The notes below the pieces were generated by a model. The model worked only from the letters and a program-made list of their open reading frames with translations. It searched no databases and had not been told where the DNA came from. The translations under genes and the position numbers were made by a program. This document shows positions 22,216-50,279 of a DNA stretch of 64,000 nucleotides, piece by piece. Every line of letters starts with the position of its first letter. The stretch's first letter is position 1. The DNA is from an uncultured Spirochaetota bacterium (GTDB taxonomy: Bacteria; Spirochaetota; Brevinematia; Brevinematales; JAOACQ01): assembly GCA_963783575.1 (NCBI GenBank), contig CAWAOD010000016.1:128001-192000 (forward strand), in the 5' to 3' direction.

Positions 22216-22866
22216 TCACTCATTCAATTCCAGGCTAATATTCTCAAAGTAGGTTTCGGAAGTTACAGTAACGGAAAAAGCCGAAATAAGTGTTAAAATC
22301 TTCTGTATAACGGGGATGCCTTGAAGCGTTAAATAAGTGATTTTTATCTCATAGGGATAATCCGTTTCATTGCCTTGATAAATAATCCCATCTATCGCTT
22401 TGAGCCCTTTATTATAGATTATGGTTAAAACCTTTTTTTCATTAATTTTATCTGCTTTCACAATTCCGCTAAATACAATATGACTATCCGTTTCACTTTC
22501 AGCCTTCAGCCGGTAACGGTTCAAAAAAGTAGCAAAATATAAATCTCCCATCTGTACAGGTTCTCCCGACACAGGCTTTTTTACGCCGTTAATCAGGGTA
22601 TCCCCGTTTGTTCTGATAATGATTACGACCCTCGAAGGAGAATCGATCCGATAGAGGGTGCCGTCATTCACAGAATATGAGAAAAAACCTTTCTGGTTAA
22701 GCACCTGTCCGGTTCCGGAAGTTTTGATAACAACATCTGCGTTTAAAGATTTAATCTTTCTCGAATAATACCGCAGATCCTGCATTACCTGTTCACCGGA
22801 ATAAGAAAATAAAATAGCCGGGAATATTGTTAAAACTATATACAAAACAATATTTTTATAAGTCAT
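22216..22866 (-). CDS. Exported protein with a probable LolA-like fold
   Basis: Signal peptide; IKSLNADVVIKT..KGFFSYS..RIDSPSRVVIII pattern and terminal YFENISL; AGGAG RBS before ATG 22866. Confidence 0.55.
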   Translation of the reverse strand: MTYKNIVLYIVLTIFPAILFSYSGEQVMQDLRYYSRKIKSLNADVVIKTSGTGQVLNQKGFFSYSVNDGTLYRIDSPSRVVIIIRTNGDTLINGVKKPVSGEPVQMGDLYFATFLNRYRLKAESETDSHIVFSGIVKADKINEKKVLTIIYNKGLKAIDGIIYQGNETDYPYEIKITYLTLQGIPVIQKILTLISAFSVTVTSETYFENISLELNE

Positions 22867-22922
22867 AACTCTCTCCTTCTCCATGTCCTTCAACATGCGT
22901 GCCGCTTGATCCGGGTATGATT

Positions 22923-23024
22923 CCCCGCAGTTTACGGAGTTTACCCCGAGCGAGCCGAGGGGCTACCTGTCAAGTTGGCTTCCTGCTATTCTACATTTAT
23001 AATACCCCGCATCTTACTGCGGGG
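22923..23024. repeat. REP-like palindromes between the giant gene and the LolA-like gene
   Basis: CCCCGCA-TCTTAC-TGCGGGG hairpin (23005-23024), a partial copy CCCCGCAGTTTAC (22923) and REP-like CCCCGAGCGAGCCGAGGGG (22944-22962). Confidence 0.6.
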
Positions 23025-23061
23025 AGAGTTTATTAAATGCGCCGCCTTCTATATCTCCTAT

Positions 23062-26000
23062 TTATTCTCTACCTTCTTCCCAGTCATCATCATTCCTTTT
23101 ACCGGTCACATCCTCATAAATCCTGAGTTCATCCAGGTAGAAATATTCCTTTGGGTTGAACGAGTCAGTTTCACTGAATCCAAAGTATAGTTTTCCATTT
23201 TTATCCGAATAAACGGACTGATTTGTCCTGGTAAAAAAGGTTTGCTTTAAAATATCATCAATGTAAAATTGAATATAGGGTGTATTGCCGGAAGAAGATA
23301 AATCGTAATTCACCCTGATCCTGTGCCAGTTTTGATGGTGATCATCATCATGATCTTTCCCATCTTTATCATCTGCTCCGTCATCATTGTTTGTCAAATA
23401 ATAATTTGTCTGGCCCAGACCAATTGAAATACCGTACCTGGGATCCAGGTAAATGCTGAAGAGGGAAGTGGTATCACTCCTTATCTCAAACAGGGTCATT
23501 CTGGCCGACGGTTTCATGCTGTTATCCGGGAGATTATCCTGCATCATAAACTCAATCGAGGATTTGACCGGATTTATCAATTCATTGGTAGCCATACCGT
23601 AGATAATACCGGGTGAATAATCCTTATGCGCCGTAATCCCAAGGTAATGGTCGCTGAATATATAATAGGGCTCATTGGTAAGGTTCGGTTCCCACTTCCA
23701 GTCCTTTCCATAAGGAACATATGAACAATCGTAATATTCAAAGCCGGAATAGAGCAGGAGGGTTTGTTCATAATCCTTAACAATATTGAATGCAACCTGG
23801 TTGGTCGAATGGTTCCCGGCTTCGTCTTCAGCATAAACCAATAACTGGTAATTTCCTGAATTGGTAATAATCCAGTTGGTATAAAGGATCCATTTTTCAT
23901 CGCTTTTTTTCAGGTATTCTTCAAATACAGGTTTTACCGTAAAATCATCTTTTACCGAAACCACCGGAGAAACGGATAAATAATTGTGTTTATCGATGAC
24001 ATTAATGATATTGATCTTCGGAGGTTTCTTGTCGATAACAAATTCCCTGTAAACCGAAGCGATGTTGGTGTAAATGTCCTCGGCATAAATGTTAAGAATG
24101 TGATTCCCTTCCGTATTTATTATAGCGGTTGCTTGTCCATTCATCAAACCATACAGCTTCCCATCTATGGAGACTGTCGTATTGGACAGCGATAGATTCG
24201 GGTCATCGATCTGGACAGTTAAGTATATATCATTGCTATAATACTTCTTTTCGGTTAATCCGCTTACCGAGATTGAAGGAGGTGTGGTATCATGGAGAAG
24301 GAATTCCTTAACAACATCCGTCTCATTTCCGGCTTTGTCCACAGCTCTGACAGAGAAGATATAACTGCCGGCCATTGTTATTTTCACCGAATTCGCCGTT
24401 AAAGGCATACCGTTTAAAAACGCCTCTGTTTCCGAGATATTTTCATCCAAAACGGCATAGCTGAATTCAACCGGCTTAAAGAATTCCTCAGAATCCAGGC
24501 CTGTGACCGTAATCACCGGTTTTGTCTTATCAATAACAAATGACAGGTTTACCCGGTTTGTATGATTGACAACATCCCAGGCGGCCGCCTCAATCCGGTG
24601 GATACCTTCGTTGGTTACCATGCAGAGGCCGTTTCCATTGGTTTTTTGATCTATGACGATCAAACTCCCTGACAGATTAGCGTCCGCTGCGAACATATTT
24701 ACTGAGACATCCGTATTATAGTACTTATTATTAATCGCGCCGTCGATTTGTATCGCAGGCGCAGTTTTGTCTATTATAAATTCCTTTTCTGTTTCGCTGC
24801 AATTGCTAAATATATCTCCGGCATAGACTGCCAGGTGGTGGGTTCCTTCCTGAGTAACGGCCGTGACGAATGTTGTCCCGTTAAGAATATTGGTTTTTCC
24901 GTCTATCACAGCGCAGCACGCGCTTCCCGACAGATTTGCATCGGATACCCTGATTGAAAGGTTAACATCATTTCCGTAATATTTTCCGTTATCAAGCCCC
25001 GAAATGGTAATCTCCGGAGGTATGGAATCGATCACGATGAAATTTTTCGTTAAGACGGCTTCATTGCCCGCCTTATCCTGGGCATCGATCGTAAGGGTGT
25101 AATTTCCGGCTTTCGTTACGGAATAAATGTTTGTCGATAAAACCTGGTTATTTAATGCGGCGGTTATTGCTGAGAGATTATCATCGGCCGCCGTATAACC
25201 TAATTGCACGGTATTGGAATAAACGGTTGCTTCCAAACCTGTGACCGTAATCACCGGTTTTGTCTTATCAATAACAAATGACAGGTTTACCCGGTTTGTA
25301 TGATTGACAACATCCCAGGCGGCCGCCTCAATCCGGTGGATACCTTCGTTGGTTACCATGCAGAGGCCGTTTCCATTGGTTTTTTGATCTATGACGATCA
25401 AACTCCCTGACAGATTAGCGTCCGCTGCGAACATATTTACTGAGACATCCGTATTATAGTACTTATTATTCACCGCACCGTCGATTTGTATTGCAGGCGC
25501 AGTTTTGTCTATTATAAATTCCTTTTCTGTTTCGCTGCAATTACTAAATATATCTCCGGCATAGACCGCCAGGTGGTGGGTTCCTTCCTGAGTAACGGCC
25601 GTGACGAATGTTGTCCCGTTAAGAATATTGGTCTTTCCGTCTATCACAGCGCAGCACGTGCTTCCCGACAGATTTGCATCGGATACCCTGATTGACAGGT
25701 TAACATCATTTCCGTAATATTTCCCGTTATCAAGCCCCGAAATGGTAATCTCCGGAGGTATGGAATCGATCACGATGAAATTTTTCGTTAAGACGGCTTC
25801 ATTGCCCGCCTTATCCTGGGCATCGATCGTAAGGGTGTAATTTCCGGCTTTCGTTATGGAATAAATGTTTGTCGATAAAACCTGGTTATTTAATGCGGCG
25901 GTTATTGCTGAGAGATTATCATCGGCTGCCGTATAACCTAATTGCACGGCATTGGAATAAACGGTTGCATCCAAACCTGTGACCGTAATAACCGGTTTTG

Positions 26001-29000
26001 TCTTATCGATAACAAAAGAGAGGCTTGCCGTATTAGTATGATTTACTTTATCCCAGGCAATTGCCAGAATTTGCTGTTTTCCGGACCCCGATACGGTGAA
26101 CTGACCTGTCGGGACGGTTATTCCATTTAAATAAACGGAACTTCCAGCCGGGTTGTCTTCAAGGATATTAACGGATATTGTTTTATCCGAATTATAAAAA
26201 TTTCCTTCCTCGGCACCAGTAATCCCTATAACAGGAGCTGTCCGGTCTATTACGAATATCCTGTCGATGACGGTTGTATTACTGTAAGAGTCCTCTGCAT
26301 GAATGAGCAAATGATGAGAACCTTCCAGGTTAATATTGGTGGAAAACGGAATGCTGGTAAGATAATAGATTTTACCGTCTATTGAAGCATAAGTGGCGCT
26401 TTCCAGGAGATTTTCATCCCAGACTGAAATGCTTAAACTTATGTCATTGCTGTAATATTGATCCGGTTTTAAACCTTTTAATGTTACGACAGGGGCGATA
26501 TTGTCGCTCCCGCCGGTATTTACGGTGAATGTTTTAAAGTATTCACTTGAATTTCCGGCTTTATCGACCGCTTTAACCGACAGATTGTAACTGCCGCTTG
26601 CACTGATTTTGTAATGGTTCGTACCTAGAGCCTGGCCGTTAAGCTGTGCATCGACTTTATCCAGATTAACATCGGAAACCAGGTATCCGAATTCAACCGA
26701 GCTTGTGTAATTTGTTTCAGATAATCCTGAAACGTCTATCTCAGGCTTAGTCTTATCAATAGTAAATGTAAATAATACGCTGTTAGTATTCATGAAAGTA
26801 TCACTTGCGGTCACTTCAAGGGTATGAACACCTTCGGCCGAAACCGTAAATGAATTTGTTTCAATAATAGCGCTGTCCATAACAACCCGGCTTGAATCAA
26901 GGTGCGCATCCGTTGATTTCACAGTAATTACAGCATTATTGCTGTAATAATGAGCATCTTCAATTCCCGTAACGCTTATGACTGGAGCGTTCGTATCTAT
27001 TACGATAGCAAGAGGCGGAATTTTCCCTCCGTCGTTAGTAGTATCGCACACTTCGATGAAGAGGTAATAGGGTTTACTGAAATTCCCGCTGAACCGTTCA
27101 TTCGTCCCATATTCTTCACGGTATAGATACCCATTATTGGCATTGTCCTCCGATATTGCGGCAATAAAGTAAAATCCCTTCTTTAATTCAACCGGTTTCT
27201 CAAAGCCGCTGTAAACAAAATCTTTATCAAGTATATCCTTGTCCCACCTGAACCCGGTGATATCCTGCACATCATAGTCGAAATCATGCCATCTCCATCT
27301 CCAGGCGTCATTGACAACATCTCTGTAATGGGACTCATCCACTTTTGCAATATCATACCAAACCTTTCTGATTCCGGAAGATACACCATTCACGGCAGGG
27401 TCTTCTCCGCTCATAAGGAGGATCGAGTTGGTCAAAGTTTTAAATACGTTATTCGTCAATTTACCATTGCCGATGGTGAAATTGATCACGGGTTTTGTGC
27501 TGTCCGCCAGACCTATTCCGGAATCTTGCCTGAAATTTCCCTTGCCGTCTTTATACTCGGCTTTAACCAGATATATTCCGTCATTTAATCTTTCAGTACT
27601 GCCATAATGTGGGGTTTCACCGATATATTCCCACAGTTCACTCCGTTTGTTGTAATTCCTGTCATTATACAGGCCTAACCAGTCTTCAGGTACGAAGGAA
27701 AGCTTGGTGCTGTCAAGCGGCAGGTAATCCAGCTTTTTCTTTGCCCTTTCGTCCGAATGAAATTTGACATCGAAAGGTATAGCTTGACTGTAGAAATTTG
27801 TTGCCGGCCTGACTATTTCGATCAGGTCATCCAGGGTATTGGTGATGGTCATCCAGTTACCTGGCATTCCGTAATCGCTCCATGCCCTTACTTTAGCGGT
27901 TATATTAAGTGCCTGGCCGGCTGTCAATTTGATATTGCTCAATATTGTATGGTTGGCGGAAATATTTTGAACCTGCCCGGAAACCGAGAATTCATAATTC
28001 CCGGCAGGCACATTATTCAAGTCCTTCCATTCATAAATTATATTCGTATGATTCAATACCAGGCTTGTAAAGTTCGTAATACCCGGTTCACTGTTATTGA
28101 TTTTAACTGTATAATAATGAATATCCTCATTGTTCCCGATTTTATCTATTGCCCGGAAACTGAAATCGTGGAGTCCATCATCAATGAATTTAAGCGGTAC
28201 GGTATAAGTTATCCATTCATCATTGTCGATGCGGTACTCTATCTTGTCAACTCCCGAAACGTAACCGTCGTATTCACCCATATCATCCTTTGCATCGAGC
28301 ACAATCGTTACATTGGAATTCGCCAGTATCATACTTCCGTTAGTGGTAAAATCACCACGGAGTGCTATCCAGCTTACGGGCGGCGTTGTGTCGGGAAGCG
28401 GGATGTTTACATAGTCTGTTACAGCGCTTTCGTTACTAACCAGATCCATAGCATTGAAAACAATTTCATACAATCCTTTGCTGTAAATCCCCAGGTCACT
28501 GAAAGAAATCCCGTTACCGTTTGTGTAATATGTATAAAAATTTGTTTCGATAAAAATATTATTGCTGATGCCCCTTATGGACAGTATAATTCTCTCAATG
28601 CCGCTGTCTTCCTTAATATCCGCGTTAAACCGGTTCGCCGGTGAAATATATTTTTCACCCATAATGTTCATGGGTTCTATCAAATTCGATGTGTAAACGA
28701 CCTTTAAAACAGGAGCTATACCGTCAATAAATATGTCCATTGAATTTGTAGCCCAGTTGTCCACATCATCCACACCGGCATCGTAAAGGGTATAAAATCC
28801 GTTTGTGTAACCGTAAAAAGGTATGACATCGCCTTTGGTATAATCTTTCAGAACAGGCTCCGTACCTCTCGGTACTATGCTATAGTATAAGCCTTTCAAA
28901 TCCGGATCATCGGAATAAATTGAAACGCCCGCGTTTGTACTTACAAAGAAGCTGTATTTTGTTAAGTTTGTTTGTGTATGAGCCGGTATATTTTCGATAT

Positions 29001-32000
29001 TGGTTGTGACGGTGAAATTGAGATTTGAAATACTGCCGGGGTCGAGGCCTGATAAATCAGGAAGATTGGTGAAGTAAGTTCCGCCCAAATATATGTTATA
29101 GTTTGTACTGGAGTAGGCCGCAATGTTTGTGACGGTAAAATCGAACTTGAGTGACTGGCTGCCGCTGAAAGTCTGGTTCACAAGGGGAGGAGTATTATCC
29201 ACCAGAAGATTGGTCGTAAATATGGCGGTATTCGATGCGCTGTCAACAAGCTTAAACTCTAATATTTTCATTCCATCATAATCAGCCGTATAAACATAAT
29301 TCTGATTCAGCTGGTTCGTGTCTGTCCGGTTCGTTTCGGAACTGCACATCCAGTTTCCATCGTAAATGGAATAAATTGAGCGGTCCAACCGGTAATTATC
29401 GCTGTAGTTTAAAGATATAACGCTATGGTTGACCGAGGGGCTGTTCTGCGAAATCTTAACGGCAGAGAGCGTAACGTCATTGATTTGCGGAGGCATACTG
29501 TCTATTGTGATTGTAAAATCATAATTCGTGATGTTTCCGGTAAAATCACAAACGGATAATCTTGCGTTGTATGTTCCATCGCTGAAATATGAACCGTCTT
29601 TTTGCTTACCGTCCCAGGAAAGTGTTATGTCTCCTTGCGTATTAGTCGAACAAAGCATTTCCTGATAACCGTTACCGGGTCCTTCAATCGACAAATGGCT
29701 CACCACCAGGTTGGTGATATCATTTGCGTCATTTACCGCGTTATATTCCATAAAAATCCGGCTGATGCCAGGGGAGAGCGTCCTGGAGATGCTTTTTACA
29801 GCCAGGGCAGGCGGATATATATCGTTCCTGACTTTGACAACCCCGGAATATGAAATGGATCCATTACTTACACTGTCGATCGCCGTTACTTTCAACCGGT
29901 AATCGCCCTGGAGCAGGGGTACGCCGCCCACTTTGCCGTCCCAGTAATAATCCCAGGCATTATCAGAAATACCATTGGAAGCGATGACTGCGGTTTGATA
30001 AACACCGGCATAATTGGTCCCTTCTATCTCCACTTTTTGTACCCTGATTTTTTCATCATTGGTTATTTTAATCCAGAGAAGAGAATTTTCCATCGTAGAA
30101 GAATAGATTTCCGGCTGCGCTTCAACATAAATAAAGGGCGGAGTCCTGTCTACAATAACATTAGTTGTAAAAATAGATGTATTGCCAGCAGCATCCAAAG
30201 ACTGAATCCGTATGGTATTAGTGCCTTCAGGAAGTAAATCGCTGTTTATTATTATATTTGTAGTCCCGGATTTATCAATAAATCCTCCCGCCTTCTCTGA
30301 ATCTGAAGATAGCGTATAATTTATGCTATGAGTGTCGGAAACCGTGAATTCGATTTGCATCAACCCCTTCACCTTCAAATCGCCGGGGAAGGCTGTTCCA
30401 AAGGTATTGTTACCATCTATCCGGTTTAGCTGAACTGCAGGCGGTGTGTTATCAATGTCGAGCGGAAGAGATGTCCGATTGATGTTACCGGCCTTATCGG
30501 AGGCCTCAAGTATAAATTCGAATGTCCCGTTCAGCATTGCTTTTGCCGTGTCAAACGAGCAAACGTATCTATCGATAAAACTGCTATCCATCAGATTACT
30601 TGTAATAGTTATCTCTGTGCCGTTTGTATAATAAATCCTGTATTTCAACGGATTCTGGTCATTAATAGTAACATAAAAATCAATATTTCCGGCTAATACC
30701 GCATCATTTCTGTCCGGCCTGAAAGATAAAGCCGGCACTATGTTGTCAATAATTACCTTTCTGTAATCGGAGGAAATATTCCCTGCCCAGTCTTCGGCAT
30801 TCAGGGTTATGGTATGTTCGCCATCCGGAACCTTACCGGAGGTTGTATCGATATCTGCGGTTACAGCGTTGGAATTATTATTTAAAATCCCGGATTGTAC
30901 AATCTCTCCATCCAGCAGTATATTCCAGGATTTTGGGTAATTATCAAGAATATTTCCTTTGAGTGTAAATGTTCCGCCGCATACCCCGTTGTTATCGGGG
31001 CTTGTAATCACCGTCAAAGGCGGTTCCCTATCGACAATAATGGAAATATTGGTCGTATTGGTATTGCCCGCTATGTCTGCAGCCTGAATGATTAATGTGT
31101 ATTGCCCGTTATCGTTCAAACCGGTAAAATCATTCTCAAAATCGATGCTAAACCGGTTTGTGGCAAGATTTTCGCCGGTGTATTTTTGATAACGGCCGCT
31201 GCCGTTTATTCCAATCTCGTAGTAAGCCAGGCTGTCGTTATCGCTTAAGTCCGCCGAAACCCGGAGCTTGTTCTGGATACCGCCGGTTATTATGTTCCTG
31301 ATTTCCGGCGGGTTGTTGTCCACCATAAACGGCTGGTCGATTATGTTTGTGTTTCCCGCTTTGTCGAATGCAATGAGCCGCATTGTATAAAGGCCGTTAA
31401 GATTAGCGCAGTTCCATGCTACCGTACCTGAATAATCCGGGATCAACCCCGAAATGTTTTGTATCAGGTTAAATTTGCCGTCTTGATCTATCCAGCCGGC
31501 CTGAGCCCCGTCAATATTAGCGTCCTGGATCACCACAGGTATTCTGGAAACCGCCGTTAAAGACGAAAGCCTTCCATTACCGGCAATGATATCCGCGAAA
31601 GGCTTCGCGTTATCCACAAGAAATTTTAGTGTTTTTTCATTAGTATTTCCGGCTATGTCATATGCGGTGAGCCTCAGCTCAAAGCCGTCCGCGGGGGCCA
31701 GAGGCGCAGACGTGTTGACGCCGTATGTATCGTAAGCCCCGATCTGCCCGGATTCAATGGGATTGTTCCCCTTTGCTATCCTTTCTTCAATGCCAGTCTG
31801 ATCATTTTTCAGGTAGAGTTCATAACCGGTGAGATGCTCGTCTTGAATTCCTCCGGAAATGTCCAGCATTCCCCGCACAATCTGGTTCTGTCCCGGATTG
31901 GCGATGGTCAGGGACGGCAGAATGTTGTCTACAGTAAAACTGACAGCTCTCTTGACAGTAAAGGTCTTGCCCGCACAGTTCGCGGTAAATTCGAGCGTGT

Positions 32001-38000: not shown

Positions 38001-41000
38001 CAACAGCTATCCCTAAGTTATTCAGGTTAATGTTGCGTATATTGCCCTCAGGTCCGGATGTGTTTAAATTAAAATTAGCGAATAAACCTGTTTTATTAAA
38101 AGAATAATCGCCTTTTGAATTATCCAGCTCAATCACATCCGAAGCTGTTATGTAGGAGGCTCCGTATCCCCCGTAATTGATTTGAGAATTATTTGGATCA
38201 AGGAATGCATTATGCAGGGATGCAAAATATTTATCGTAACATCCGTCACCGTTGGTATTAAAATTATGGCTCTGGTTCCAATTCGCCACCTGATTAAGCG
38301 TAGCTGGAAAATCAATAACAATGTCGTTTTTATCATCGATATCTGTATGGGCAATATATGTGTGGGTATTAGGAATTTGAGTGAAATACACATTGTAAGC
38401 TTTATTTGCTTCCAGATTATCGCCTTCAAACCTGAAATTCACATGGTTTCTGGGTACAAACCCATTAAAATTTGCATTTTCATCATATTCATAGCAAAGG
38501 GCTTTCCCTTTGCTAACATTCGCATCGAAATCATTCGCCATCGATACATAATGGCTGATATAACCGTTTTTGCCTTGTATTCTCCAATTGTAATAATGCC
38601 TTGCACCGTCCTCTTCGATAACCGAACCCGAAATATCAAAATGAGTATAACTATCGTAAATTGGCCCTACATTATTTGTTTCAGTCTCGTCCGAATCTTT
38701 TAAAATTTTGTTATTTTGATCTTCTTGGTTCCCATAATAATATTTATTTTCAGAGGCCCATTGGCTGAAACGGTTGAGAACATTATTCATCATTGTATTC
38801 CCTCTTCGATTTGGATCGAATGTAAAATCGAAGTTACCGACAAGATGGGAATATTTATATCCTCCGACATCCCCCCATTCTCCCACATCAGTATTTTCCA
38901 CCCTAAAATCTTCACCCGAAGCAGTTTTATGAACATTTTTCCCATTTACTGTTATATCATCCAGGCCGTACATTCCGCTCGGCCAGCATCCGACGGACCC
39001 GATCCGGTGATCGAACCAATCGCCGTTATCCCCGTTATCGATTTTATTATCGGCGCTGAAATGGATATGCTCCCCCGGGCCCATTACCTTTTCTATGCCT
39101 GCGCTGCCGGTGTCTTTTCTGTCATTCGCCGTCGATACGCTTCCCCAAAAAGATTTCTTGACTTCTCTCCTTGTAAAATCATATTTTCCTTCAACCTTCA
39201 CATAAGCCGAGTCAAACCAGCGATAGGCTTCCGTCACGAAAGGCACGAAGGGATAACCTACCACGGCCTGGCTTCCTCTTGCATTTAACCTGTATGTGAC
39301 TTTTAACGGTGGAAGGTATGCGCCCGTTACATTCTTTAAAACCCATTTAAAACGGGCGTCTCCATTTACGGCTACTACATTCTCATTGTTTGTGCTCTGC
39401 CCTTCAACGTTTAAAAGGGGGGAAAGCCCTCCGGATATTTCTTCGGGATTCAATGTAAATGGTATAAAGTTTGTTGCGGCGATATCGGGATGATCCGCGT
39501 CCCACGCCACGATCCTGAAATTGTAATTTCCTTTATCGAGAAATTCGGGAGAGCCGATTGAGTCTTTAACGCCATTATAGTTTACCTGGTTATAATAATT
39601 GCCGTTTACACTCGTGTTTTTCACAATTTCGCAAACATCCCTATTATTTGTATCCATTACAGTTATATCAACAAAGGCGCTCTTTGTTACCCTGAAAGAC
39701 AGTGTTGTACAGTTTATTCCTGTACTAAAAGGATCAAAATTTGTGGATGAAAGACCGATATTTGTTATATCTATTCTGCTGTATACTTCCAAATTGTCAA
39801 TGTTTTTTTTATCGAAACCCTTTCCATCCCTTCCTTCGGCGGTTAGAACCAGCCGGTAATTTCCGTCATTTACCAGTGATCCGTAAATATCCTTGCCGTC
39901 CCAGGTAAACGAAGGCGCCGGCCTGGCATTTTCAAGCCGGAATCCTATATTGTTTGAAAGGCTTCCCACAGAGGCCGAATAAGGATTATCATCCCCAAAG
40001 ATGGATTCAAGAACAGGGTGCTTACCGTTATCATAATAAATAAAATTCGGGTCCGCCTGGTCATTTACAAGCAGTTCGAACCAGACTTCATCCGCGTCGG
40101 TGTTAAAAATAATTTCCCTCTGTCCCTTATGGGTATTGGTTATTACCGTACCTTTATTGGTAACGATATTATACTGCGAAGTTGCCGCTTCTTTTACCGA
40201 GTCGTCCGAGGCAACCGTGTAGGAAAAACTGAATTCATTTTCAGTACGATATGTGATCCCATGGTCCCTGGTCGAAATGGCGTTGTCTTTAAGTCCGCCG
40301 ATGCCTTCCTCAGCCCTAACTCTTCCGCCAAACCGCATATCCGAAGAACCGGGGTTTGTCATAACGATATGCCAGCCCGCTTCGTCCTGGTAGACGTTAA
40401 AGCCCTCCGTCACATCCGGAGTCGGCTGAATATATGGCTTCCCGTTCAGATTATATTTCTTGCTATTGCAGACATTATTTGAATTTTGATCGTAAACACC
40501 GAAATTTACATCAGCGCTGGATACATTCTGCAGGGTTAATTTGTAATCTAATTTTACGCTGTTCTTTCCGTCCGCTATAAAATTCATTTTATCTACGCCC
40601 ACTTCCTGAAGAATGACAGTCGAAACCGAATCATCAGTGGGAATTTCTATTGCGTTGGTAATTTTAATAAAACTTAAGTCCGCCCACTGGGCTCCTTTCA
40701 ATTCCTGGAGAGAAGGCGCGGATGTGCTCGCAAGGAGTACCGACATGGGTTCTTCCCTTGCGACAAGAAGCAGGGTATAATCTCCATTCGTAAGCTTTGC
40801 TGTTTCAAGATACCCGAGCAGGGAATTCTCTTCCACGGAACGGAAGGATATGTTTGCCGTTTCCCCGGCTTTACGGTTGAGTTCCGGAACCCAGAGTGCC
40901 CCGTCTCCGTCGCTCCAGCCTTCACCGGTAAGAACGGAATGGTCCAATCCATCGGGCATGGTTTGATTACCGGGCTTGATATAGACTGCGTAGTTCATAA

Positions 41001-41988: not shown

Positions 41989-44900
41989 ACTGCCGAAGCA
42001 TGGGTATAGGTGTGTCTTTCAGTTTGTAAGCGACCATCAATGTTTGATTATGGTTTACGATGCCGATATTTTCAATATCGGCGATCGGCGGGGTGGTATC
42101 GTTATAAAATCCGGTGACCGTGGTCGATTGATTGCCCATCATATCAATAGTCTCAATCATTACTGCATATTCCCCTTCCGGTATTATATTTTCCTTTTTC
42201 TGAAGAGGGAAGGAAACATTCCAGGATGTCGCATCGTTCTGGCTGATCGTGTAATCCGTCACCGGAGTCCAGTCATCATAGTAACCGCTGACCGTTTCCT
42301 GCATCCATGGGATAGAAAGCCGCTTGAGGTAGATCTTTAAATTATCCCGTTTCAATTCGGCTCCCATATCGGAATTGTAAACACCGACCGCAATTTCAGG
42401 ATTCTGTGTTCTATTGAGATTGACTACGTCAAATATCTTCGGATAAATAGGGTAAGCTTGCATCGGCATCATATCGAGAAAGATTTCAAAAGCATAACTC
42501 CCAATTTCCCCAGCGATTACTTCATTGCCCGACCTGTTTTTATATGCCAGGCAAGTGGTAAAGGCGATGACATTCCTTCCTTCCAGAAGATGCAAGCCCG
42601 ACAGTTTAAATTCACCCTTCGCGCTCAATGGGACTTCTTTATAATCGCTGTAATTGATTGAATACATAAGTTTTCCAAGCTGCGGAATGTTTGCCCGGAC
42701 AATCCCTTCTATTGAGTTGACGAACTCATTCAGCATGACATTTTCAACCGATGTAACCTGGCCGCTCCTTGAATTGAGGAGGGTTTGTATTCCCAATTTT
42801 CCTTCAGTAAACTTATACTGGCTAACCGGATTCCCATTTATCTTGAGGAGTAAAACCGGCGGGGCTTCCCCGCCCAATTTACTTAGGGTCAGGTTTTCAT
42901 TCGTTACGATTTTGTCGAAACTTCCCGTGATACCCCCGCCGCCACTCTGTCCGCCCTGCAGGCCGAATATTTTAGTCATGATCAGTTCGCCGCCTTCACT
43001 CTTCAGATCGGTGTTTTTAAGATAATCCGTCGCGAGTAAAGCGGCTGTTCCCATAATCGCGGCACCGGCAAAGCCGGGTGGGATTGGCACCGATACCGAT
43101 ATGTTTGGTACCGGAAGGATGCAATCCACTAATGTGGAAACCTTGTCCTGGATGATTTGTTTGGTCGCCGCGTTAAGATAGCTGACTCCCCTGTCGTATA
43201 GTCCCTGCACAAAAAGAATCGGGCGTTGTTTGATGTTTTCCAGCATTGAAACAAGACTGCTGCCTGAATAGTTCAGGTTGTTGTAAAGCTTTTCCATCCC
43301 CGAAACCTCGTCCAGAATTGAAGAAACATCCCCCTGCAGAAACGCCAGGTAGGAATCTATAAAATAGGAGAAAGCGTCGAGATGGCCACTGTTAGACAAT
43401 TCGGTCTCATTCGTTAGATCACTGAAAAACCCCCTGATTTCATTATTATCAAAAATGACTGAAATACAGGAAGAGGTATTCTTTATACCGTCCACGGTGC
43501 TGTCAACCTGATCGGCAATTTGTCCGGCCTGATCCATGTAACTTTGAAGTTCATTATAAAGGTTGTTAACGCCGTATTCATTTCCCAGCTGGTAAAAAGC
43601 GGTTTGAATTATTTCACTATAAGCATCTTGCACCATTTGTCCTGCCATACTTGAGAAATTAGGGAATATTTGCCGTATCCAATCCGGTGTATTTCCGCCG
43701 GATAGGGAATTCTCCACAGCACTTTTTATTTTACTACCGTTCAGCCATTCCCTGCCGTCGGATATAAGAGACCTGACGGTAGGACTAATTGATTTGATCT
43801 GACTGCCGATCTCAGAAATCTTATCCCCCATAACCTGAAACTGTCCACCGTAAACATCCGCAAAGGTACTATATCCTCCGGATAGTCCCGGCGTTGTCAG
43901 GATAAGATCCTTCAAACGCTTATATGCCTGGCTCCTCACTTGCTGAGGCGTACTTGAAGTGAACCGGCGGATAACCATCAAGGCATTCTTGACCTCATTC
44001 AGTTTGGACTCGATTACGGTAATGCCGCTTCCTGTTTTTTTAGTAACGATAGTCCCAATATCATCATCAGCAATTTCAAAGCAGCTGTCCGAAACCGTTT
44101 TAAGCTGATTTTCTATCTTCAGCCAGAGAGGAGTATAAACCATATTGTTCAACGCCTCTTCCGCGTATTCGGAAGCTATTTTTCCAAGCTCTTCATCCAG
44201 GTTGTTAAACACTTTACTGTCTGTTGAGAAGAGTTTGGTACCCGTATAAAGGCCGGCAAAGCCGCCGGCCCCTGCAAATACAACTACGCCGGCCTGGAAC
44301 AAAAACGGCATGTCGGGCCAGAATGCCGAGCTCGTACTTGAAACCTCTACCCCAATGTCTTCCGGGTTAAAGTTCCGGATGGAATTCATTAAAGAACTGT
44401 TGGCGTCCACGCTTAAGGCCGAGTCAGCCCTGCCCAGGAGGATAGAGATATAATTGAACGGATTTATAATATCGTCGTTTCGTACGATTTTTTTTACCGT
44501 ATCTTCTATATCCATTCCTGTAAGGGTTCTTATAATATCATTCGGTTTGATGTTGGTATCGATGCCTATCGGATTAAGATCGATATTGACGGATGAGAGA
44601 AGCCCCAATACCGGTGCGATCGTCAGGTATGCCGCGTAGGATTGCGCAGCCATACTGATAGAGTTGTAACCGTTTGCGGGCACTCCGATCTCGATAATCT
44701 TCGAAATCCTGGGAGCGGCCATCCGCTGCCCTGCGGGAAGGTCCTTTTCGTCCAGAAGCATTTTACGAACCCAGATACCGGCCTTACCCCATGTCGACAA
44801 AACAATCTTCCCTCCGCCAGCGGAATTATAGTAATCGATCACCGCCTTCCGGATCTTATCCACAGCTGCCTTTCCGCTATCACGCTCGTCTTCCGGTGTT

Positions 44901-47491
44901 ATGGAAATGCTTTTTGCGTTCACACCCTTTCCTACAAGTACATATTTCACCGGATCAATCTCAACCCCGCCTGCCGAAATACCCGGCGCAACAATCAGGC
45001 ACTTGTCTGAAACACCCAATACGTCGTAAAGAGCCTTCTTTGCGGTTTCCTCGACGATTTTATCGACATTAAAATCAATGCCGTCAACCCAGCTGTTGCC
45101 TGCGTCGTCTGCTGCCTCGACAGTAAAGACGCCTGAAAGTCCCTGAGCGAGTTTGCCTTTTCCCTCCAGGAACTCTTTAAGGTCCCATAGAATGGTGAAT
45201 TTACCGGTATTGGTATCAAAACTCACCGGTATCCCGGATATGGTTTCAACCGTTACATCGCCGAAATTTCCGGTCAAAATCCTGTCCGCATTATGTACGA
45301 CAAATTCCCATTTATTAAGCTCCTCGCCAGTGGACTTGTCCTTCGACGTTACGGAAACATGAATATTCCGGGAAAGATTATCGGAAAGGGTTAACACCAG
45401 CGCGTTTCCCAGCCCCTGCATAATGTCGCTGAAAAGATCGCCTAGACTGAATGTAAATGTGGGCGGGGTGTAGTCAATGGCAAAATCGGGGGATAGAAAA
45501 CAGCCGTCCTGGTTAAGATCGTCTTCCGGGGGATTTACATTATCCGCTAATAAAACCATATCGTTTTTAAACTTTGTTATTCCCCCCGAACTGGCAAGAT
45601 AGGAAAGCCTGTGGAAGGTTACACTATCCGCCATTAATAAAGCCAGTTTATATCTTCCGTTTGGAATTATGTTGTTATTCGCCTGAAGATTTATCGAACC
45701 GCTGTTCCAGCCATATTCTGCTGTATTATTCCTAATTTCTCCTTTAGTTAAAGGATTTCCCCATTTTATTCCATTGCCTGAGCTTACAATTTCTATTCCT
45801 CCGATATTACGTACATTGCCAAGAAAACTTTGAAACGCGTCTTTTCTCCCTTTATCATCTATACTGGATGCATAATCGCTTAAATAAGCATCTCTTTTTA
45901 AATAAAAATCATTAACTTTGTTATTGTCCGGGTTATCCGGTATTAAAAAAGCGAAGGTATTTCCTTTGTCCAATGTTTTGTCGTCATCCGCTTTAAGTTT
46001 GATTGTAATATTTTCCTTACCGATATCACTAAACAGCCTGGCTATGCCGTTGCAGGCGTTATTTATTTTCCTGAAATCCCATTCCCCAAGATTCCCTCTT
46101 TTATCGCTGACTGTATTAAAATAAGTCAAGACAGGCATCTCGTTGTCAAAACATAAGGGCAGGTACATTGGAGTTGAATGCTCGTAGTTAATGAATGCAA
46201 AGCTGCTTTGTGACGCCGAACCTGTATCGATTCCCACTTCAGTCTGAGGATCTGAGTCTACTTCGTTATTAGCCATGTCATGACCGCTCAGAAATATACC
46301 GGTTTTGTTTAAAAGAATATCTGCGCTCATCTCTATATTTTTCGCATCCATCCACATCATGTTTTCCGATTTAATGCTGTTATAAACATCAGCCGGCATG
46401 ATATTCCCAAGAATCAACCCGGTCTGGCTGATATCCGGGAAAGAACTTGGCGCCAGATTGACCAGGAAATTATCCGAGGGATTGACATTCCATCCGGTTA
46501 ATTTTGCCAGCCATTCTTCTGCCTCCGTCAGATTCAGGTTTAAATCCGATTTGCAGAATGTCAGGCTTCCATCCTTCATCCCGGCCGGGGACCGGCTTTT
46601 AAAACCGGCGTATAGCTGCAATGTAATATTACCGTCGCCATCCGCGAGAGACTTTATTTTCTTTCCGTCGGCCACGTTCACAAAAGACGAAATCCATTTT
46701 CCGCCGTTGTTTTTATAGAAATAATAATATGCAAGAATTTCTCCGCTTCCCGACGCAATGATCACCGCCCGGACCGATGCCGGGTAATAGCCCGTGTAGC
46801 GGTAGAAGATGAAAGTTGCATTATCAGAAAAATTCATTTCCTGGCGGAAACCATCCTGCTTACTTAGGTAAGTATGTGTGCCTGAAACCCAGCTTGTATT
46901 GGTCGCGGCAGCATAGAGACTAATGCTGGATAACCCGCTATTATTTCCGACCGGTTGCCAGCCGGTCTGGCTGTTAAACGAAAAAGGCCCATACTCAAAA
47001 GGATTTGAGTCACCTGATGAAAGAATAGTATCCTGTTTCTGCCCGTTTATTGATAGGTAGACATTATCCCATTTTTGATCCGCTGTCTTTTCCGCCTTCG
47101 TCAATATTCTGGAACCTGAACGAATCCGAAGCTGGAAATCAATGGAACTGCTCGCGCTGTCTATCAGATAATTATTTTGATCCAGCTGCTTCGCATTCGC
47201 CGGTGGTGTCAGGACAAATTGCGGATAGGGGGAATAATTATCAAACCCCTTTCTACTATCATAAACTGTACTGTCATGTTTTGGAAAATAAATTTCACTT
47301 TTATTACTAGCTAATCTAACCATTTCACCCTGTCTTTTGATAGCTGCAGGCGGTACTCTTGTATTGGCATCTAATAATTGCTGTATTTGATTTAATACAT
47401 TATTTTCTCCATAAAAAAATCCCGGAATTAAACCCATCTTGAGCTTCATAAATAATACCATATTTATGTTCTTTATCCTGCCAACCGCCAA
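41927..47491 (-). CDS. Giant surface protein, middle segment (Ig-like domains, degenerate alpha/beta-hydrolase, helical and hydrophobic region)
   Basis: Ig-like motifs (DYTPPTF, AADDAGNS, TIDMMGN, NDTTPP); lipase-like IVAPGIS / KIVLSTWGKAG / KIIEIGVPANG; hydrophobic QAGVVVFAGAGGFAGL and GFAGAAIMGTAALLA. Overlaps both neighbouring ORFs at frameshift-like junctions. Confidence 0.85.
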   Translation of the reverse strand: MAVGRIKNINMVLFMKLKMGLIPGFFYGENNVLNQIQQLLDANTRVPPAAIKRQGEMVRLASNKSEIYFPKHDSTVYDSRKGFDNYSPYPQFVLTPPANAKQLDQNNYLIDSASSSIDFQLRIRSGSRILTKAEKTADQKWDNVYLSINGQKQDTILSSGDSNPFEYGPFSFNSQTGWQPVGNNSGLSSISLYAAATNTSWVSGTHTYLSKQDGFRQEMNFSDNATFIFYRYTGYYPASVRAVIIASGSGEILAYYYFYKNNGGKWISSFVNVADGKKIKSLADGDGNITLQLYAGFKSRSPAGMKDGSLTFCKSDLNLNLTEAEEWLAKLTGWNVNPSDNFLVNLAPSSFPDISQTGLILGNIMPADVYNSIKSENMMWMDAKNIEMSADILLNKTGIFLSGHDMANNEVDSDPQTEVGIDTGSASQSSFAFINYEHSTPMYLPLCFDNEMPVLTYFNTVSDKRGNLGEWDFRKINNACNGIARLFSDIGKENITIKLKADDDKTLDKGNTFAFLIPDNPDNNKVNDFYLKRDAYLSDYASSIDDKGRKDAFQSFLGNVRNIGGIEIVSSGNGIKWGNPLTKGEIRNNTAEYGWNSGSINLQANNNIIPNGRYKLALLMADSVTFHRLSYLASSGGITKFKNDMVLLADNVNPPEDDLNQDGCFLSPDFAIDYTPPTFTFSLGDLFSDIMQGLGNALVLTLSDNLSRNIHVSVTSKDKSTGEELNKWEFVVHNADRILTGNFGDVTVETISGIPVSFDTNTGKFTILWDLKEFLEGKGKLAQGLSGVFTVEAADDAGNSWVDGIDFNVDKIVEETAKKALYDVLGVSDKCLIVAPGISAGGVEIDPVKYVLVGKGVNAKSISITPEDERDSGKAAVDKIRKAVIDYYNSAGGGKIVLSTWGKAGIWVRKMLLDEKDLPAGQRMAAPRISKIIEIGVPANGYNSISMAAQSYAAYLTIAPVLGLLSSVNIDLNPIGIDTNIKPNDIIRTLTGMDIEDTVKKIVRNDDIINPFNYISILLGRADSALSVDANSSLMNSIRNFNPEDIGVEVSSTSSAFWPDMPFLFQAGVVVFAGAGGFAGLYTGTKLFSTDSKVFNNLDEELGKIASEYAEEALNNMVYTPLWLKIENQLKTVSDSCFEIADDDIGTIVTKKTGSGITVIESKLNEVKNALMVIRRFTSSTPQQVRSQAYKRLKDLILTTPGLSGGYSTFADVYGGQFQVMGDKISEIGSQIKSISPTVRSLISDGREWLNGSKIKSAVENSLSGGNTPDWIRQIFPNFSSMAGQMVQDAYSEIIQTAFYQLGNEYGVNNLYNELQSYMDQAGQIADQVDSTVDGIKNTSSCISVIFDNNEIRGFFSDLTNETELSNSGHLDAFSYFIDSYLAFLQGDVSSILDEVSGMEKLYNNLNYSGSSLVSMLENIKQRPILFVQGLYDRGVSYLNAATKQIIQDKVSTLVDCILPVPNISVSVPIPPGFAGAAIMGTAALLATDYLKNTDLKSEGGELIMTKIFGLQGGQSGGGGITGSFDKIVTNENLTLSKLGGEAPPVLLLKINGNPVSQYKFTEGKLGIQTLLNSRSGQVTSVENVMLNEFVNSIEGIVRANIPQLGKLMYSINYSDYKEVPLSAKGEFKLSGLHLLEGRNVIAFTTCLAYKNRSGNEVIAGEIGSYAFEIFLDMMPMQAYPIYPKIFDVVNLNRTQNPEIAVGVYNSDMGAELKRDNLKIYLKRLSIPWMQETVSGYYDDWTPVTDYTISQNDATSWNVSFPLQKKENIIPEGEYAVMIETIDMMGNQSTTVTGFYNDTTPPIADIENIGIVNHNQTLMVAYKLKDTPIPMLRQYGNENRRKRCPCQNPLFYRP

Positions 47492-48137
47492 ATAGCATGT
47501 TATGTGTTGGATAACTGAAAAAATCTCCCCCTTTTAAATCATAAGTATCAACAGGAAGTGATATCTTTTTCAATTCATCTATACTATCCAATATATATTG
47601 TGAATTATCAGGATGTTCATATTTGTAAGCCCTAGTGACAAAACCAGTACATTCAATCCCTGCAATTTGATTAAAGTTCAAACTACCGAAAGTGTCCCAA
47701 TAATATTCCGTTCCCTGGCCGGTCTTACGATCAAATCCACCCGGTACAATTGAATCGTTTTTTATTCTATTTATATACTCATTGGGGCTGTTATAAACAC
47801 CAAAAGCATAAGGCATTATGTTAAACGAGCCTTCGTTTGCATCGCTTTCAAGGTTTTTATTTATTATGATATTGTTATTCGGATCTCTGAAACCCGTATC
47901 ATATTTATATAGGAAAGGTATTTTATCATTTCCCTCATATATTTTATAATAAATCGTCTGGAAATCTTCAGAATCATTATTCGTAATAAAAGTAACCGTA
48001 TCACTGCCAGTTTCCTGCCATGTTGGGATCTGTAAATATGATTCCGCAGTTTGAATTACACTCTGTCTTTCATTTACAACTGAATAACTATAATTAAGAA
48101 TAATAAATGAGGATATAACTAAAATTATTAATTTCAT
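47400..48137 (-). CDS. Giant surface protein, N-terminal segment: signal peptide plus NlpC/P60-like cysteine hydrolase
   Basis: MKLIILVISSFIILNYSYS signal; RQSVIQTAESY, MPYAFG, AGIECTGFVTRAY (Cys), LKGGDFFSYPTHNMLF (His), YEA; GGGGGA RBS. Confidence 0.8.
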   Translation of the reverse strand: MKLIILVISSFIILNYSYSVVNERQSVIQTAESYLQIPTWQETGSDTVTFITNNDSEDFQTIYYKIYEGNDKIPFLYKYDTGFRDPNNNIIINKNLESDANEGSFNIMPYAFGVYNSPNEYINRIKNDSIVPGGFDRKTGQGTEYYWDTFGSLNFNQIAGIECTGFVTRAYKYEHPDNSQYILDSIDELKKISLPVDTYDLKGGDFFSYPTHNMLFGGWQDKEHKYGIIYEAQDGFNSGIFLWRK

Positions 48138-48138
48138 T

Positions 48139-49647
48139 TTAATTTCCCCCTAAATAGACGGGTGTGTAACGATATATCCTCAAGCCTTTGAACAGTCCCG
48201 GGTCTTTTCTATCAATCACATTTGGAAAAGGATACTCATATAACCTTTGATCGCCGGAAATAAAATAATCCGGTCTATATATCGCATAGTTATAATAAAT
48301 ATTTTCTCCATTATTAGAAATAACAGTTATAAATGAATTATTAGCTTCAGAATAAATGTTTATTTTTAATTCCTTTTTCCCCATCTTCCAATTGTTAAGA
48401 ATTCCTTTTGAATAGTTATCATAATTTAAATTTAAATACTCAGAAAATATCCTATTAAAATAATTTGAATTTGTTGTATTCTTTGTATGCTGTATATTAG
48501 TTATAAATTCTCCGTTTGTTGTTAATATGACAAATAAATTCGTTCCATAATAATCTATTAATATATTGTTATTTATGTAGAGATCGCACCAGAAATTATC
48601 TTGAATTGTCATATTTTCTTTTGGCATTCTTACTTTCCATTTTTTTATTGTCTTACCCTCTCCATTATCTGATAAAGGCAGTTCTGCAAAATCTTCAACC
48701 AAAAATACTTTTCCATCGTCATTTTTTAATAAAAAACGGTCTTTTTCTTTCATTTTTAAGATAAAATTTAAATATGCCTGTATCTTTGATTTTTGAGATT
48801 TGACCAGACTTGCCGCAGAATCTAATTCAATTGCTTCTCTCAAATCAAAAGCTCCTGATTGGCTTTGCCAGCCTAATTTACTCAGATCGTCTAAATAATA
48901 TTCGGTTTTTTTATTCACCTTTGTCAATACATTCAATTTGCCCGTTGCCTTGTACACCTTTAATGCTTCATCAGTAGAAAGCCCTTCCTTCGGCAGGGTT
49001 AGCAGTATTGCAAGCTGCCGGGCGGCGTTGTATGTTTTGCTCACCGCTGTGGCGCTTTGAATACCGGGATTGTTGTTGGACAAGGTTTTTGTGTCAATTT
49101 TGATTTGCTCTTTGTCCCGGATAGCAATAGAATCGTCCTCACCGGTATCGATCTGCTCCATCTTTCGGACATAATCCATATTTTTCTTTTCAATATCGTT
49201 CAGGTCTTTAAGTATGTTAAAATTTGTTTTCACCTGGTACCATGAAGCCGCTGAAAGGGTTTTCCTGAGATATTCGGTTTCGAATGCATAGCCATGCCTT
49301 GCGAATATCTCATTTCGCAGGAGTATAAGGTAGGAGAGTTTGATGTTTGTAATCGGCTCTACAATTCCCGCTGGGGCTTTCAAGTCGTCTGTGTTGTAAG
49401 GCCGCCTGCCGCCGTTGTAGTTTTTCCCGGAGAAATAGGCGGCGATTTTAGTATAATAAAGGTTGGTAATGTTATCTTCAGTTTTGAATTCTGATTTTTT
49501 CTCTGTCTCTGCAGACGGCACTTTAGCCGCAGCGGTTTGAGAAGCCGGTTTTTTCTCGGCTTGGGGTTTGACGGCGGCTTTCTGTCCGCATGCTGCAATG
49601 ATGAGAGAAGTCATAGCGATAGCGGTAACTAAAATTGTTAATTTCAT
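48139..49647 (-). CDS. YARHG-domain lipoprotein
   Basis: Lipobox IAAC after ATG 49647 (AAGGA RBS); LLRNEIFARHGYAF..WY..LNDIEKKN YARHG signature; stop is 1 nt before the start of the next gene. Confidence 0.88.
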   Translation of the reverse strand: MKLTILVTAIAMTSLIIAACGQKAAVKPQAEKKPASQTAAAKVPSAETEKKSEFKTEDNITNLYYTKIAAYFSGKNYNGGRRPYNTDDLKAPAGIVEPITNIKLSYLILLRNEIFARHGYAFETEYLRKTLSAASWYQVKTNFNILKDLNDIEKKNMDYVRKMEQIDTGEDDSIAIRDKEQIKIDTKTLSNNNPGIQSATAVSKTYNAARQLAILLTLPKEGLSTDEALKVYKATGKLNVLTKVNKKTEYYLDDLSKLGWQSQSGAFDLREAIELDSAASLVKSQKSKIQAYLNFILKMKEKDRFLLKNDDGKVFLVEDFAELPLSDNGEGKTIKKWKVRMPKENMTIQDNFWCDLYINNNILIDYYGTNLFVILTTNGEFITNIQHTKNTTNSNYFNRIFSEYLNLNYDNYSKGILNNWKMGKKELKINIYSEANNSFITVISNNGENIYYNYAIYRPDYFISGDQRLYEYPFPNVIDRKDPGLFKGLRIYRYTPVYLGGN

Positions 49648-50031
49648 AAAACAATCCTTAAAAATTTTATTTAACAACTGTTAATCTGAAGCAATGAAGT
49701 TAACAATTAGCCTGATTATAAATTTTTTAGATTGCTATTAATTAAGAAAGTTCCCCGTTTATCGCTATATAATAAGTCCCCTGAAAAATTACATTAATGA
49801 ATGAAGTAATAAAATTAAAAGTTTTTTGATGTACTTTTCATATTTAAAATGTTTGAATATACTAATATTTTAAATAATATATTTTAATTTTAAAATAATT
49901 TTTTTGCACTGAAAAGCGAAAGTTTAATATAATTAAACTCAAAATATTACATAACTATTCTATCAAATATTTATTCTATGTTGTACGACTATTTATTAAT
50001 CCGTTGAGAGGAAACAAAATTCTAAGGAAGT

Positions 50032-50061
50032 ATTATAACCGATTTGGCACCAGATTGTCAA
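50032..50061 (-). promoter_or_regulatory. Consensus sigma70 promoter for the giant-protein locus
   Basis: Minus strand TTGACA-18 bp-TATAAT, about 385 bp upstream of the YARHG gene. Confidence 0.6.
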
Positions 50062-50093
50062 TATGTTGTTTATATATTTTATAAATTGATAAA

Positions 50094-50279
50094 GGGCAGT
50101 TCTAAAAACACATTTTTTACCGCCATCGTACTTGGCGAAGTATGGTTACAATTACTGCAAAACATGTCACCCATTCGTCAACAGACTGTGTGAAAACTCG
50201 ACTTTTAGAAGTAATGAAAAATAGTTTTCACACAGCCTGCAAGCTCAGGGTGACTTTTATTGAGTTTTTAAAACTGCCC
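50094..50279. mobile_element. Nested miniature elements (MITE > REP > MITE)
   Basis: Outer TIRs GGGCAGTTCTAAAAAC / GTTTTTAAAACTGCCC flanked by TAAA on both sides. Inside is a REP-like GTCACCC..GCTCAGGGTGAC (50166-50254), itself split by a 58-bp element (50182-50239) with TIRs CAGACTGTGTGAAAACT / AGTTTTCACACAGCCTG flanked by CAA on both sides. Confidence 0.8.

Follow-up and report, generated by a model that had tools for sequence, protein, structure and literature searches.

In contact-dependent growth inhibition (CDI), a very long CdiA carrier bears a variable enzyme domain at its C-terminal end with the partner gene downstream, and in both CDI and Rhs systems an intact partner gene beside a decayed enzyme gene is the expected pattern of orphan immunity. 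The T6SS (type VI secretion system) effectors of WHIX subclass II, according to PMC12135965, have N-terminal NlpC/P60, M23 or Tae3 domains and an upstream immunity gene, with AwiU binding and protecting. We analysed a window of 64,000 nucleotides (nt) from an uncultured spirochaete of the order Brevinematales (assembly GCA_963783575.1, contig CAWAOD010000016.1, positions 128,001 to 192,000), and in it a three-gene locus that encodes a lipoprotein with a YARHG domain, a giant protein of about 8,350 amino acids (aa) and a LolA-fold protein. From comparison with relatives, we think it rather probable that the locus is a polymorphic antibacterial system in reverse order, with an upstream immunity lipoprotein and an N-terminal peptidoglycan hydrolase carried on a Sec-exported stalk of immunoglobulin-like (Ig) repeats.

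A preliminary description, made from the letters of the window, had proposed three co-oriented genes with a 1-nt gap between the YARHG stop and the giant's start, and both points held. All three genes lie on the minus strand in the order lipoprotein (49647-48139), 1-nt gap, giant (48137-23062), 196-nt spacer and LolA-like gene (22866-22216), where the lipoprotein's stop ends at 48139 and the giant's ATG stands at 48137. The giant is recorded in three pieces, and its front end and the lipoprotein's C-terminal domain share a block of low GC content at third codon positions (GC3).

48139..49647, minus strand: lipoprotein, 502 aa, with lipoprotein signal, Ala/Lys linker, YARHG domain, 35-aa motif and variable C-terminal domain (Pfam and alignment)
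49153..49329, minus strand: YARHG domain, aa 107-165, motif reading FARHG (PF13308, E 8.8e-13)
48916..49020, minus strand: 35-aa conserved motif, aa 210-244, 63% identical to a stand-alone secreted protein of relative G002; left edge of the low-GC3 block
47240..48915, minus strand: low-GC3 cassette of lipoprotein C-terminal domain, giant signal peptide and predicted NlpC/P60 head (GC3 0.24 inside, 0.49 outside)
47400..48137, minus strand: giant piece 1, 245 aa, with an NlpC/P60-type head behind a Sec-type signal peptide (alignment residues Tyr110, Cys163, His212, Glu231)
41927..47491, minus strand: giant piece 2, 1,854 aa, from the last part of the head through the variable spacer to the conserved core (open frame and homologue alignments)
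23062..41988, minus strand: giant piece 3, 6,308 aa, FlgD-Ig and Big repeats, variable insert (~39207-38308), LamG, Ig stalk and conserved C-terminal domain (Pfam)
22216..22866, minus strand: LolA-fold secreted protein, 216 aa, alternative start 22896 (predicted structure, predicted local distance difference test score, pLDDT, 64)

The tip of the giant had been described as an NlpC/P60 domain. The assignment did not come from Pfam, since PF00877 has no match in the window and reaches 1 of 15 relatives at E 0.003, below the cut-off; it came through the family alignment and profile. The head occupies aa 22-306 behind a signal peptide recognised by hydropathy and by eye, and has 15 relatives among 1.84 billion representative proteins, mostly proteins of 220-350 aa. 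When the window's protein was aligned with 14 of them (P0016, with a short matching stretch only, was left out), Tyr110, Cys163 and His212 were invariant in 15/15 sequences and Glu231 was present in most. The family profile matches E. coli Spr/MepS (PDB 2k1g) at E 7e-4 across both the Cys and the His, compared to which the head is a divergent subfamily with inserts, here fused to a giant. These alignments support a predicted NlpC/P60-type peptidoglycan-cutting enzyme built on Cys163-His212-Glu231.

The comparisons drew on 401 genomes of the phylum and 43 of the class of the source genome (G000; 4.9 Mb, 18 contigs, 89.85% complete). The relatives that bear on the locus are genomes G002, G011, G013 and G017, the last an uncultured Brevinematales bacterium of the same order, and a metagenome contig (L049). 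The giant's core is 41% identical to that of G017 and 46% identical to that of G002, both of which carry an M23-type head instead of NlpC/P60 (conserved HxxxD and HxH; PF01551 at E 0.0035 in G002). A PDB sequence search with the M23 alignment gave nothing meaningful; a weak ActS match was seen. Along the protein, aa 1-800 of the giant have no match to G017, and from 801 onward every 200-aa window matches at 23-45%. In G002, the gene of a 637-aa SH3 lipoprotein overlaps that of an M23-headed giant whose frame ends after 1,504 codons, and searches turned up neither the C-terminal domain nor a LolA-like gene; in G017, the end of a lipoprotein gene precedes an M23-headed giant and a LolA-like gene. 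Head type tracks lipoprotein type (NlpC with YARHG once, M23 with SH3 twice), and the start-stop coupling recurs in all three loci, as a 1-nt gap in the source genome, and in G002 and G017 as an overlap between the lipoprotein's stop and the start of the giant. A synteny of YARHG, NlpC/P60 giant and LolA-like gene had been put forward as a check. The front pair did not recur, while the LolA-like gene follows the giant's C-terminus in 3/3 loci where that end is visible (including G011 and G017). Because an SH3 lipoprotein and an M23 head occupy the same positions in the relatives, the front pair is better described as an exchangeable cassette, and the system is not refuted.

Base composition points the same way. 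The low-GC3 block covers the stretch between lipoprotein codon 244 and residue 299 of the giant; twice its log-likelihood difference (2dLL) is 120, compared to at most 17 when the codons were shuffled 30 times and scored on a coarser grid. The block's edges coincide with the end of the 35-aa motif, common to the G002 protein, and with the motif that ends the head. In G017, the giant's GC3 is 0.25 up to codon 1014 and 0.68 thereafter, and in G002 the low-GC3 block opens at codon 270 of the lipoprotein gene, while further steps fall near codons 436 and 1012 of the giant, the second of them at the same DYTPP motif. By these comparisons, the tip and the lipoprotein's C-terminus read as one swapped cassette of foreign base composition whose halves change together.

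The presence of a YARHG lipoprotein, as first described, was borne out by PF13308. Its lipobox-like sequence, read by eye, is LIIAA-C20, and its YARHG domain is the sole copy in the source genome. YARHG has been hypothesised as a peptidoglycan binder and co-occurs with peptidases (PMC3355149). The 502-aa lipoprotein, which is coupled to the head, changes with it and shares its composition, would likely be the cognate immunity protein. A sequence search of its C-terminus against the PDB gave no meaningful match, and when the head (aa 22-236) was modelled together with the lipoprotein (aa 205-502), the predicted complex scored 0.11, which weighs neither way. The lipoprotein of the G017 giant can be assigned to its family alone, from C-terminal residues on contig C55. 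Contig G017:C7 was considered as the upstream neighbour of that giant and dropped; four copies of the family reach past the ends of their contigs, without an overlap for any of them. The same contig holds a broken YARHG-lipoprotein gene (L039, 3070-3620), divergent from an SH3-type lipoprotein gene.

We found SH3 lipoproteins of this family in 4 of the 43 class genomes: two copies in G002, one interrupted copy in G011, three in G013 and six loci in G017. Three of these four genomes hold parts of the giant, and G013 is of the same genus as G017. Across nine aligned copies (two partial copies from G013 and G011 and one from G017 were left out), residues 51-200 are about 65% identical, identity beyond residue 250 falls to 15-32%, and GC3 drops near codons 200-250. 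The intact stand-alone lipoproteins overlap a start codon at their 3′ end in 5/5 cases, as in the full loci, and two of the five are followed by clear stubs of an M23 head (E 3e-15 and 2e-5). The case for YARHG-type orphans is weak: the reading of all YARHG proteins of the relatives as orphans was dropped, as one of five search matches examined has a 22-codon signal-like stub and none matches a head.

The preliminary description took the giant as a single gene reading through, which the sequence does not bear out. It consists of three frames of 245, 1,854 and 6,308 aa, or 8,356 residues with an X at each break, and its two frameshifts had gone unreported.

47413..47419, minus strand: frameshift 1, likely assembly error (run of seven T)
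41989..41999, minus strand: frameshift 2, likely assembly error (G017 and L049 in single frame across the point)

We consider both frameshifts likely assembly errors, because of four observations. A motif of the type YS(P/I)FPQ ends the head in 10 of 15 relatives, 86-139 aa past the Cys; in the giant of the source genome it lies 138 aa past the Cys, but in the next frame, after frameshift 1. G017 and L049 are each in a single open frame across the position of the second break, and the G017 giant of 8,114 aa, joined from contigs C55 and C16 through a 55-nt overlap, is continuous. Frameshifts also occur elsewhere in the source assembly. The proteins encoded at 20 loci of four relatives yielded 86 orthologue-like genes (thresholds of 70% cover and 45% identity), and 6 of these are frameshifted, with 9 shifts in 33,209 aa, or 2.3 expected per 25 kb compared to the 2 observed in the giant; these background shifts are clumped, and some may be true pseudogenes. 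Finally, pcrA lies in two frames (window 12461-10214), split at model position 362-363. A ThyX-like region likewise occupies two overlapping frames (55928-54433), and both splits are likely assembly frameshifts. Programmed frameshifting and three separate genes were rejected, as the homologues are continuous and the rate of shifts fits assembly error.

Behind the head lies a variable spacer (aa 307-887) and then the core, which starts at aa 888.

41996..45475, minus strand: conserved core, opening with the DYTPP motif (G017 and G002 at 41-46% identity)
~44935-44657, minus strand: alpha/beta-hydrolase-like stretch of the core (weak fold match, Z 5-6)
44305-44249, minus strand: Gly/Ala-rich hydrophobic segment of the core, aa 1278-1296 (hydropathy), with a long helical region after it
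33499..34131, minus strand: LamG/concanavalin-like domain (PF13385, E 1e-21), within a second low-GC3 stretch; G017 lacks it at this place
24494..26058, minus strand: a 738-nt Ig unit recently duplicated in tandem, the copies 96% identical (sequence comparison)
23062..23769, minus strand: C-terminal domain of about 235 aa, conserved in G011 (39%) and G017 (31%)

The proposed anatomy of enzymatic head, Ig stalk and partner genes is supported, with Pfam matches to Ig, FlgD-Ig and LamG domains and a helical middle. The idea of a membrane-active middle comes down to one hydrophobic segment above 1.5 besides the signal peptide. The structural model of the core is of low confidence (pLDDT 40 overall) and has no Foldseek match at E<=0.001. 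Four alpha/beta-hydrolases stand among the best 17 matches of its residues 263-349 (Z 5.1-6.0, root-mean-square deviation 2.1-2.9, 69-79 aa), and unrelated folds score equally. At what we take to be the position of the hydrolase elbow and nucleophile, the core reads TWG(K/N), and a GxSxG (Ser1054), conserved in 4/4 sequences, lies about 60 aa earlier. The core as a dead lipase was dropped, as a conserved GxSxG is present at another position. The C-terminal domain has no match in Pfam, NCBIfam or PDB; it looks LamG-like by eye only, and comparison with the internal LamG is not significant. As first described, no RTX nonamer or LPxTG motif was found in the giant, and no WHxxxH was found either.

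The source genome carries other Ig giants. On contig C15 (G000:C15 64005-35975; L063, L064), a lipoprotein with an S8 peptidase runs into a split Ig-repeat giant. The same locus has genes for an F5/8-like protein and for an Rhs protein of 3,753 aa, with one more small gene downstream, and is divergent from the genome's only genes of a type II secretion system (T2SS). On contig C5 (G000:C5 255977-270264; L062), a weak match to the M74 murein endopeptidase is followed by three tandem paralogues, with identical C-termini and a weak FIMAH match, and then by a split FlgD-Ig giant.

The fold claimed for the third gene is supported by Foldseek on its predicted model, which gives 23 matches at E<=0.001, all those listed being of LolA/LolB type. 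The best are the LolA-superfamily protein NE2245 (E 2e-6), LolA3 of P. gingivalis and DUF1329. Compared to that NE2245 / DUF1329 / TP_0789-like branch, which it resembles in predicted fold, the protein has 8-15% identity and is tied to the giant's C-terminus in three genomes, not to Lol genes. In a large protein set, neither the LolA-like gene nor the core had relatives beyond the window's own protein, in searches of limited length coverage. In G011 (L006, C2, 8846-17296), the C-terminal 2,500 aa of the giant are fused in frame to a glycosyltransferase-2 fragment, by either a natural deletion or a misassembly, and are followed by the LolA-like gene and then by that genome's only secretin. G011 also has a second, more distant LolA-like gene behind a different, 1,194-aa secreted protein (L014, G011:C6, 13450-18200).

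The export route had been called unexplained, and it now has two candidates. The source genome holds one secretin and one GspE, on contig C15 beside another Ig-repeat giant and an Rhs gene. It also encodes a SprA-like protein of 1,941 aa (L065, G000:C14 258484-264309), matching TIGR04189 at E 4e-19, far under the cut-off. Its G017 orthologue (L010, C16 57464-63394; 1,976 aa, 44% identical) lies 3 kb downstream of the LolA-like gene, past an unrelated gene. PorV was not found in the source genome. Secretins occur in 24 of the 43 class genomes, and the presence of one is therefore uninformative alone. The preliminary description had seen no T6SS signature in the window, and no T6SS was found in the genome: TssC and Hcp (PF05943, PF05638) are not detected in the 89.85% complete source genome, with a positive control in E. 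coli, and Hcp is found in 0/5 relatives. The CdiB/TpsB transporter PF03865 has no match in the source genome, in a search where no control genome was positive either. We regard the T2SS and the SprA-like pore as candidate routes. Elsewhere in G011 (L008, G011:C2, 125-7383), a 1,993-aa protein with a FlgD-like end precedes a PorV/PorP-like gene (E 2e-8), and the two together look like a type IX cargo-carrier pair.

A mechanism can be proposed in which the giant would pass the inner membrane through Sec, tip first. Because the tip would emerge first, the membrane-anchored lipoprotein would shield the producer's wall, blocking the tip as it passes the producer's own peptidoglycan and also the same tip arriving from kin; its YARHG or SH3 module would likely keep it near the wall. 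From the periplasm the giant may then exit by a T2SS or a SprA-like pore, and the LolA-fold partner would likely serve its C-terminal end as chaperone or tether. Reaching and binding a neighbour would fall to the Ig stalk, whose LamG and insert modules vary, and the conserved helical core could help bring the tip to the neighbour's wall. Recombination at the conserved motifs would swap the lipoprotein end and the tip as one cassette, and loss of the giant with retention of the lipoprotein would leave an orphan immunity gene. The preliminary description had listed antagonism as one option among several; tip exchange, the cassette and the orphans in relatives now add comparative evidence to it, all of it at the level of sequence.

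Several points weigh against the antibacterial system. Toxicity, inhibition, export route, tethering and the role of the core are all inferred, and the model offers no explanation of how a Sec-exported tip would reach the wall of a two-membrane target. The core is found strongly in 3 of the 401 phylum genomes (source genome, G002 and G017) and in L049, with G013 marginal at E 8e-4. A motif scan for the core gave 13 stretches, of which one, L049, is homologous and holds the middle only; protein patterns in metagenome and viral contigs gave no confirmed loci. Only the G017 giant is complete and unbroken, and it spans two contigs; the G002 giant is truncated and G011 has the C-terminal half only. 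There are two head types from three loci, the NlpC/YARHG pairing is seen at one locus, and the M23 identity rests on motifs and one sub-threshold Pfam match. Low GC3 shows recent acquisition, not conflict, and the coarse-grid codon shuffles ignored autocorrelation. Beyond the two clear stubs, two of the five orphans have borderline ones (E 0.02 and 0.03, compared to E 0.007 for a reversed control) and one has none. No orphan of either lipoprotein type was found in the source genome, and the orphan evidence is of the M23/SH3 type.

The same adhesin-type stalk and predicted wall hydrolase could serve a feeding apparatus, in which the giant grips prey or wall debris and digests peptidoglycan as food while the lipoprotein merely shields the producer during export. 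The giants of Omnitrophota, proposed in the main text of bioRxiv 2023.11.21.568195 to bind and digest prey and encoded near T2SS genes, offer a precedent, and the sole secretin of G011 does follow the LolA-like gene. We nevertheless think feeding rather unlikely, as it leaves the retention of intact orphan lipoproteins with hypervariable C-termini after head decay unexplained, and the giant lacks the many membrane helices and the SecA-like domain of the Omnitrophota giants. Quite improbable, in our view, is a self-remodelling adhesin whose head opens the producer's own wall for the giant's passage or anchoring, with the lipoprotein as activator or regulator. The nearest solved relative of the head is indeed the housekeeping endopeptidase MepS, YARHG is a hypothesised peptidoglycan binder found with peptidases (PMC3355149), and M23 domains can act as regulators (the weak ActS match). 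However, a single fixed substrate gives no reason for swapping unrelated enzymes together with matched hypervariable partners, or for keeping orphans.

An ordinary Ig-repeat surface protein could also have a front end that is a recombination hot spot, so that lipoprotein and head ride along as passengers without a common function; in this strain the gene may itself be dead. The two frameshifts, the truncated or fused copies in G002 and G011 and the other Ig giants of the source genome would fit such an account. It is highly improbable when set against the intact catalytic residues, the start-stop coupling retained in three loci, and frameshifts that match the background expectation (with pcrA split too).

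A bolder form of the antibacterial reading can be put forward tentatively, as a possibility: a new class of contact weapon in free-living spirochaetes, with a spear of approximately 8,000 aa that would be exported by Sec, do without a T6SS or two-partner system, exit by a T2SS or SprA-like pore, be tethered by a LolA-fold protein, open the target's outer membrane with its core and cut the wall with a swappable tip, while the cells gather a genome-wide library of orphan immunity lipoproteins. If the antibacterial reading is correct, the logic of polymorphic toxins would extend to an inverted, Sec-exported giant in a spirochaete order, and YARHG- and SH3-bearing lipoproteins would be anchors for variable inhibitor domains, giving context to YARHG, whose function has been only hypothesised since 2012. 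It would also point to new natural inhibitors of NlpC/P60 and M23 enzymes and to a candidate substrate for T2SS or SprA-like export in spirochaetes, and would offer a tractable case for the role of giant bacterial proteins with wall-degrading domains. With about 260 and 300 aa, both parts of the cassette are short enough for a direct test of the central claim.

Two further features belong to the locus.

50032..50061, minus strand: putative sigma-70-type promoter, consensus TTGACA-18-TATAAT, 385 nt ahead of the first ATG
22922..23025, no strand assigned: small inverted-repeat element between giant and LolA-like gene, found in about 15 other places in the genome

The promoter was correctly described as consensus, with a perfect TTGACA-18-TATAAT at 50061-50032; there are 116 such sites genome-wide, and the expectation is 0.009 per 800 nt of one strand. 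Upstream of the locus, parts of 49900-50300 recur elsewhere in the genome. One kb downstream of the locus, an 855-aa protein (21188-18621) with weak carboxypeptidase-regulatory and plug matches resembles a TonB receptor, has its own promoter-like site and is not beside the giant in G011 or G017. At 56372-60119, a lower-GC stretch carries M and S genes of type I restriction-modification.

No description of such a system was found in the literature searched, outside of which lay most subscription papers, and no interbacterial weapon is described there for the spirochaete order. Compared to the very large exported proteins of Omnitrophota (main text of bioRxiv 2023.11.21.568195), the giant shares adhesion modules with predicted wall degradation, and T2SS genes are adjacent in G011. 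It differs in its length (8,356 aa, below their 10,000-aa class), in having one internal hydrophobic segment and no multi-pass regions, and in giving no SecA-like Pfam match. That main text makes no mention of Spirochaet, NlpC, M23, YARHG or LolA, and its supplements may list spirochaete proteins.

The CdiA/CdiI and Rhs polymorphic toxins (PMC3482391) resemble the locus in several ways: the carrier is very long, its enzyme domain varies, a neighbouring gene is tightly coupled to it, and orphan partners occur with remnants of toxin genes. Here, in contrast, the order is inverted, with the enzyme N-terminal and the partner upstream, and it is the C-terminal domain that is conserved in three genomes. 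The stalk consists of Ig/FlgD repeats, with no Pfam match to haemagglutinin or YD repeats or to a C-terminal toxin, and the orphans are scattered over the genome, the partner being kept while the enzyme decays.

The closest logic is that of the subclass II WHIX effectors (Awe1/AwiU; PMC12135965), in which a conserved carrier likewise bears a variable peptidoglycan hydrolase at its N-terminus. The gene of one partner, a periplasmic protein, lies immediately upstream, and that of another follows downstream. Unlike these T6SS effectors, the giants of the source genome and G017 lack the WHxxxH motif (by motif check, with no WHIX profile); TssC and Hcp were not detected in the 89.85% complete source genome, nor Hcp in the five relatives. 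The giant described here has a signal peptide, about ten times the length and an Ig stalk; its upstream partner is a two-part lipoprotein, and its downstream partner has a LolA fold. What appears to be new here is an exchangeable head on a conserved core.

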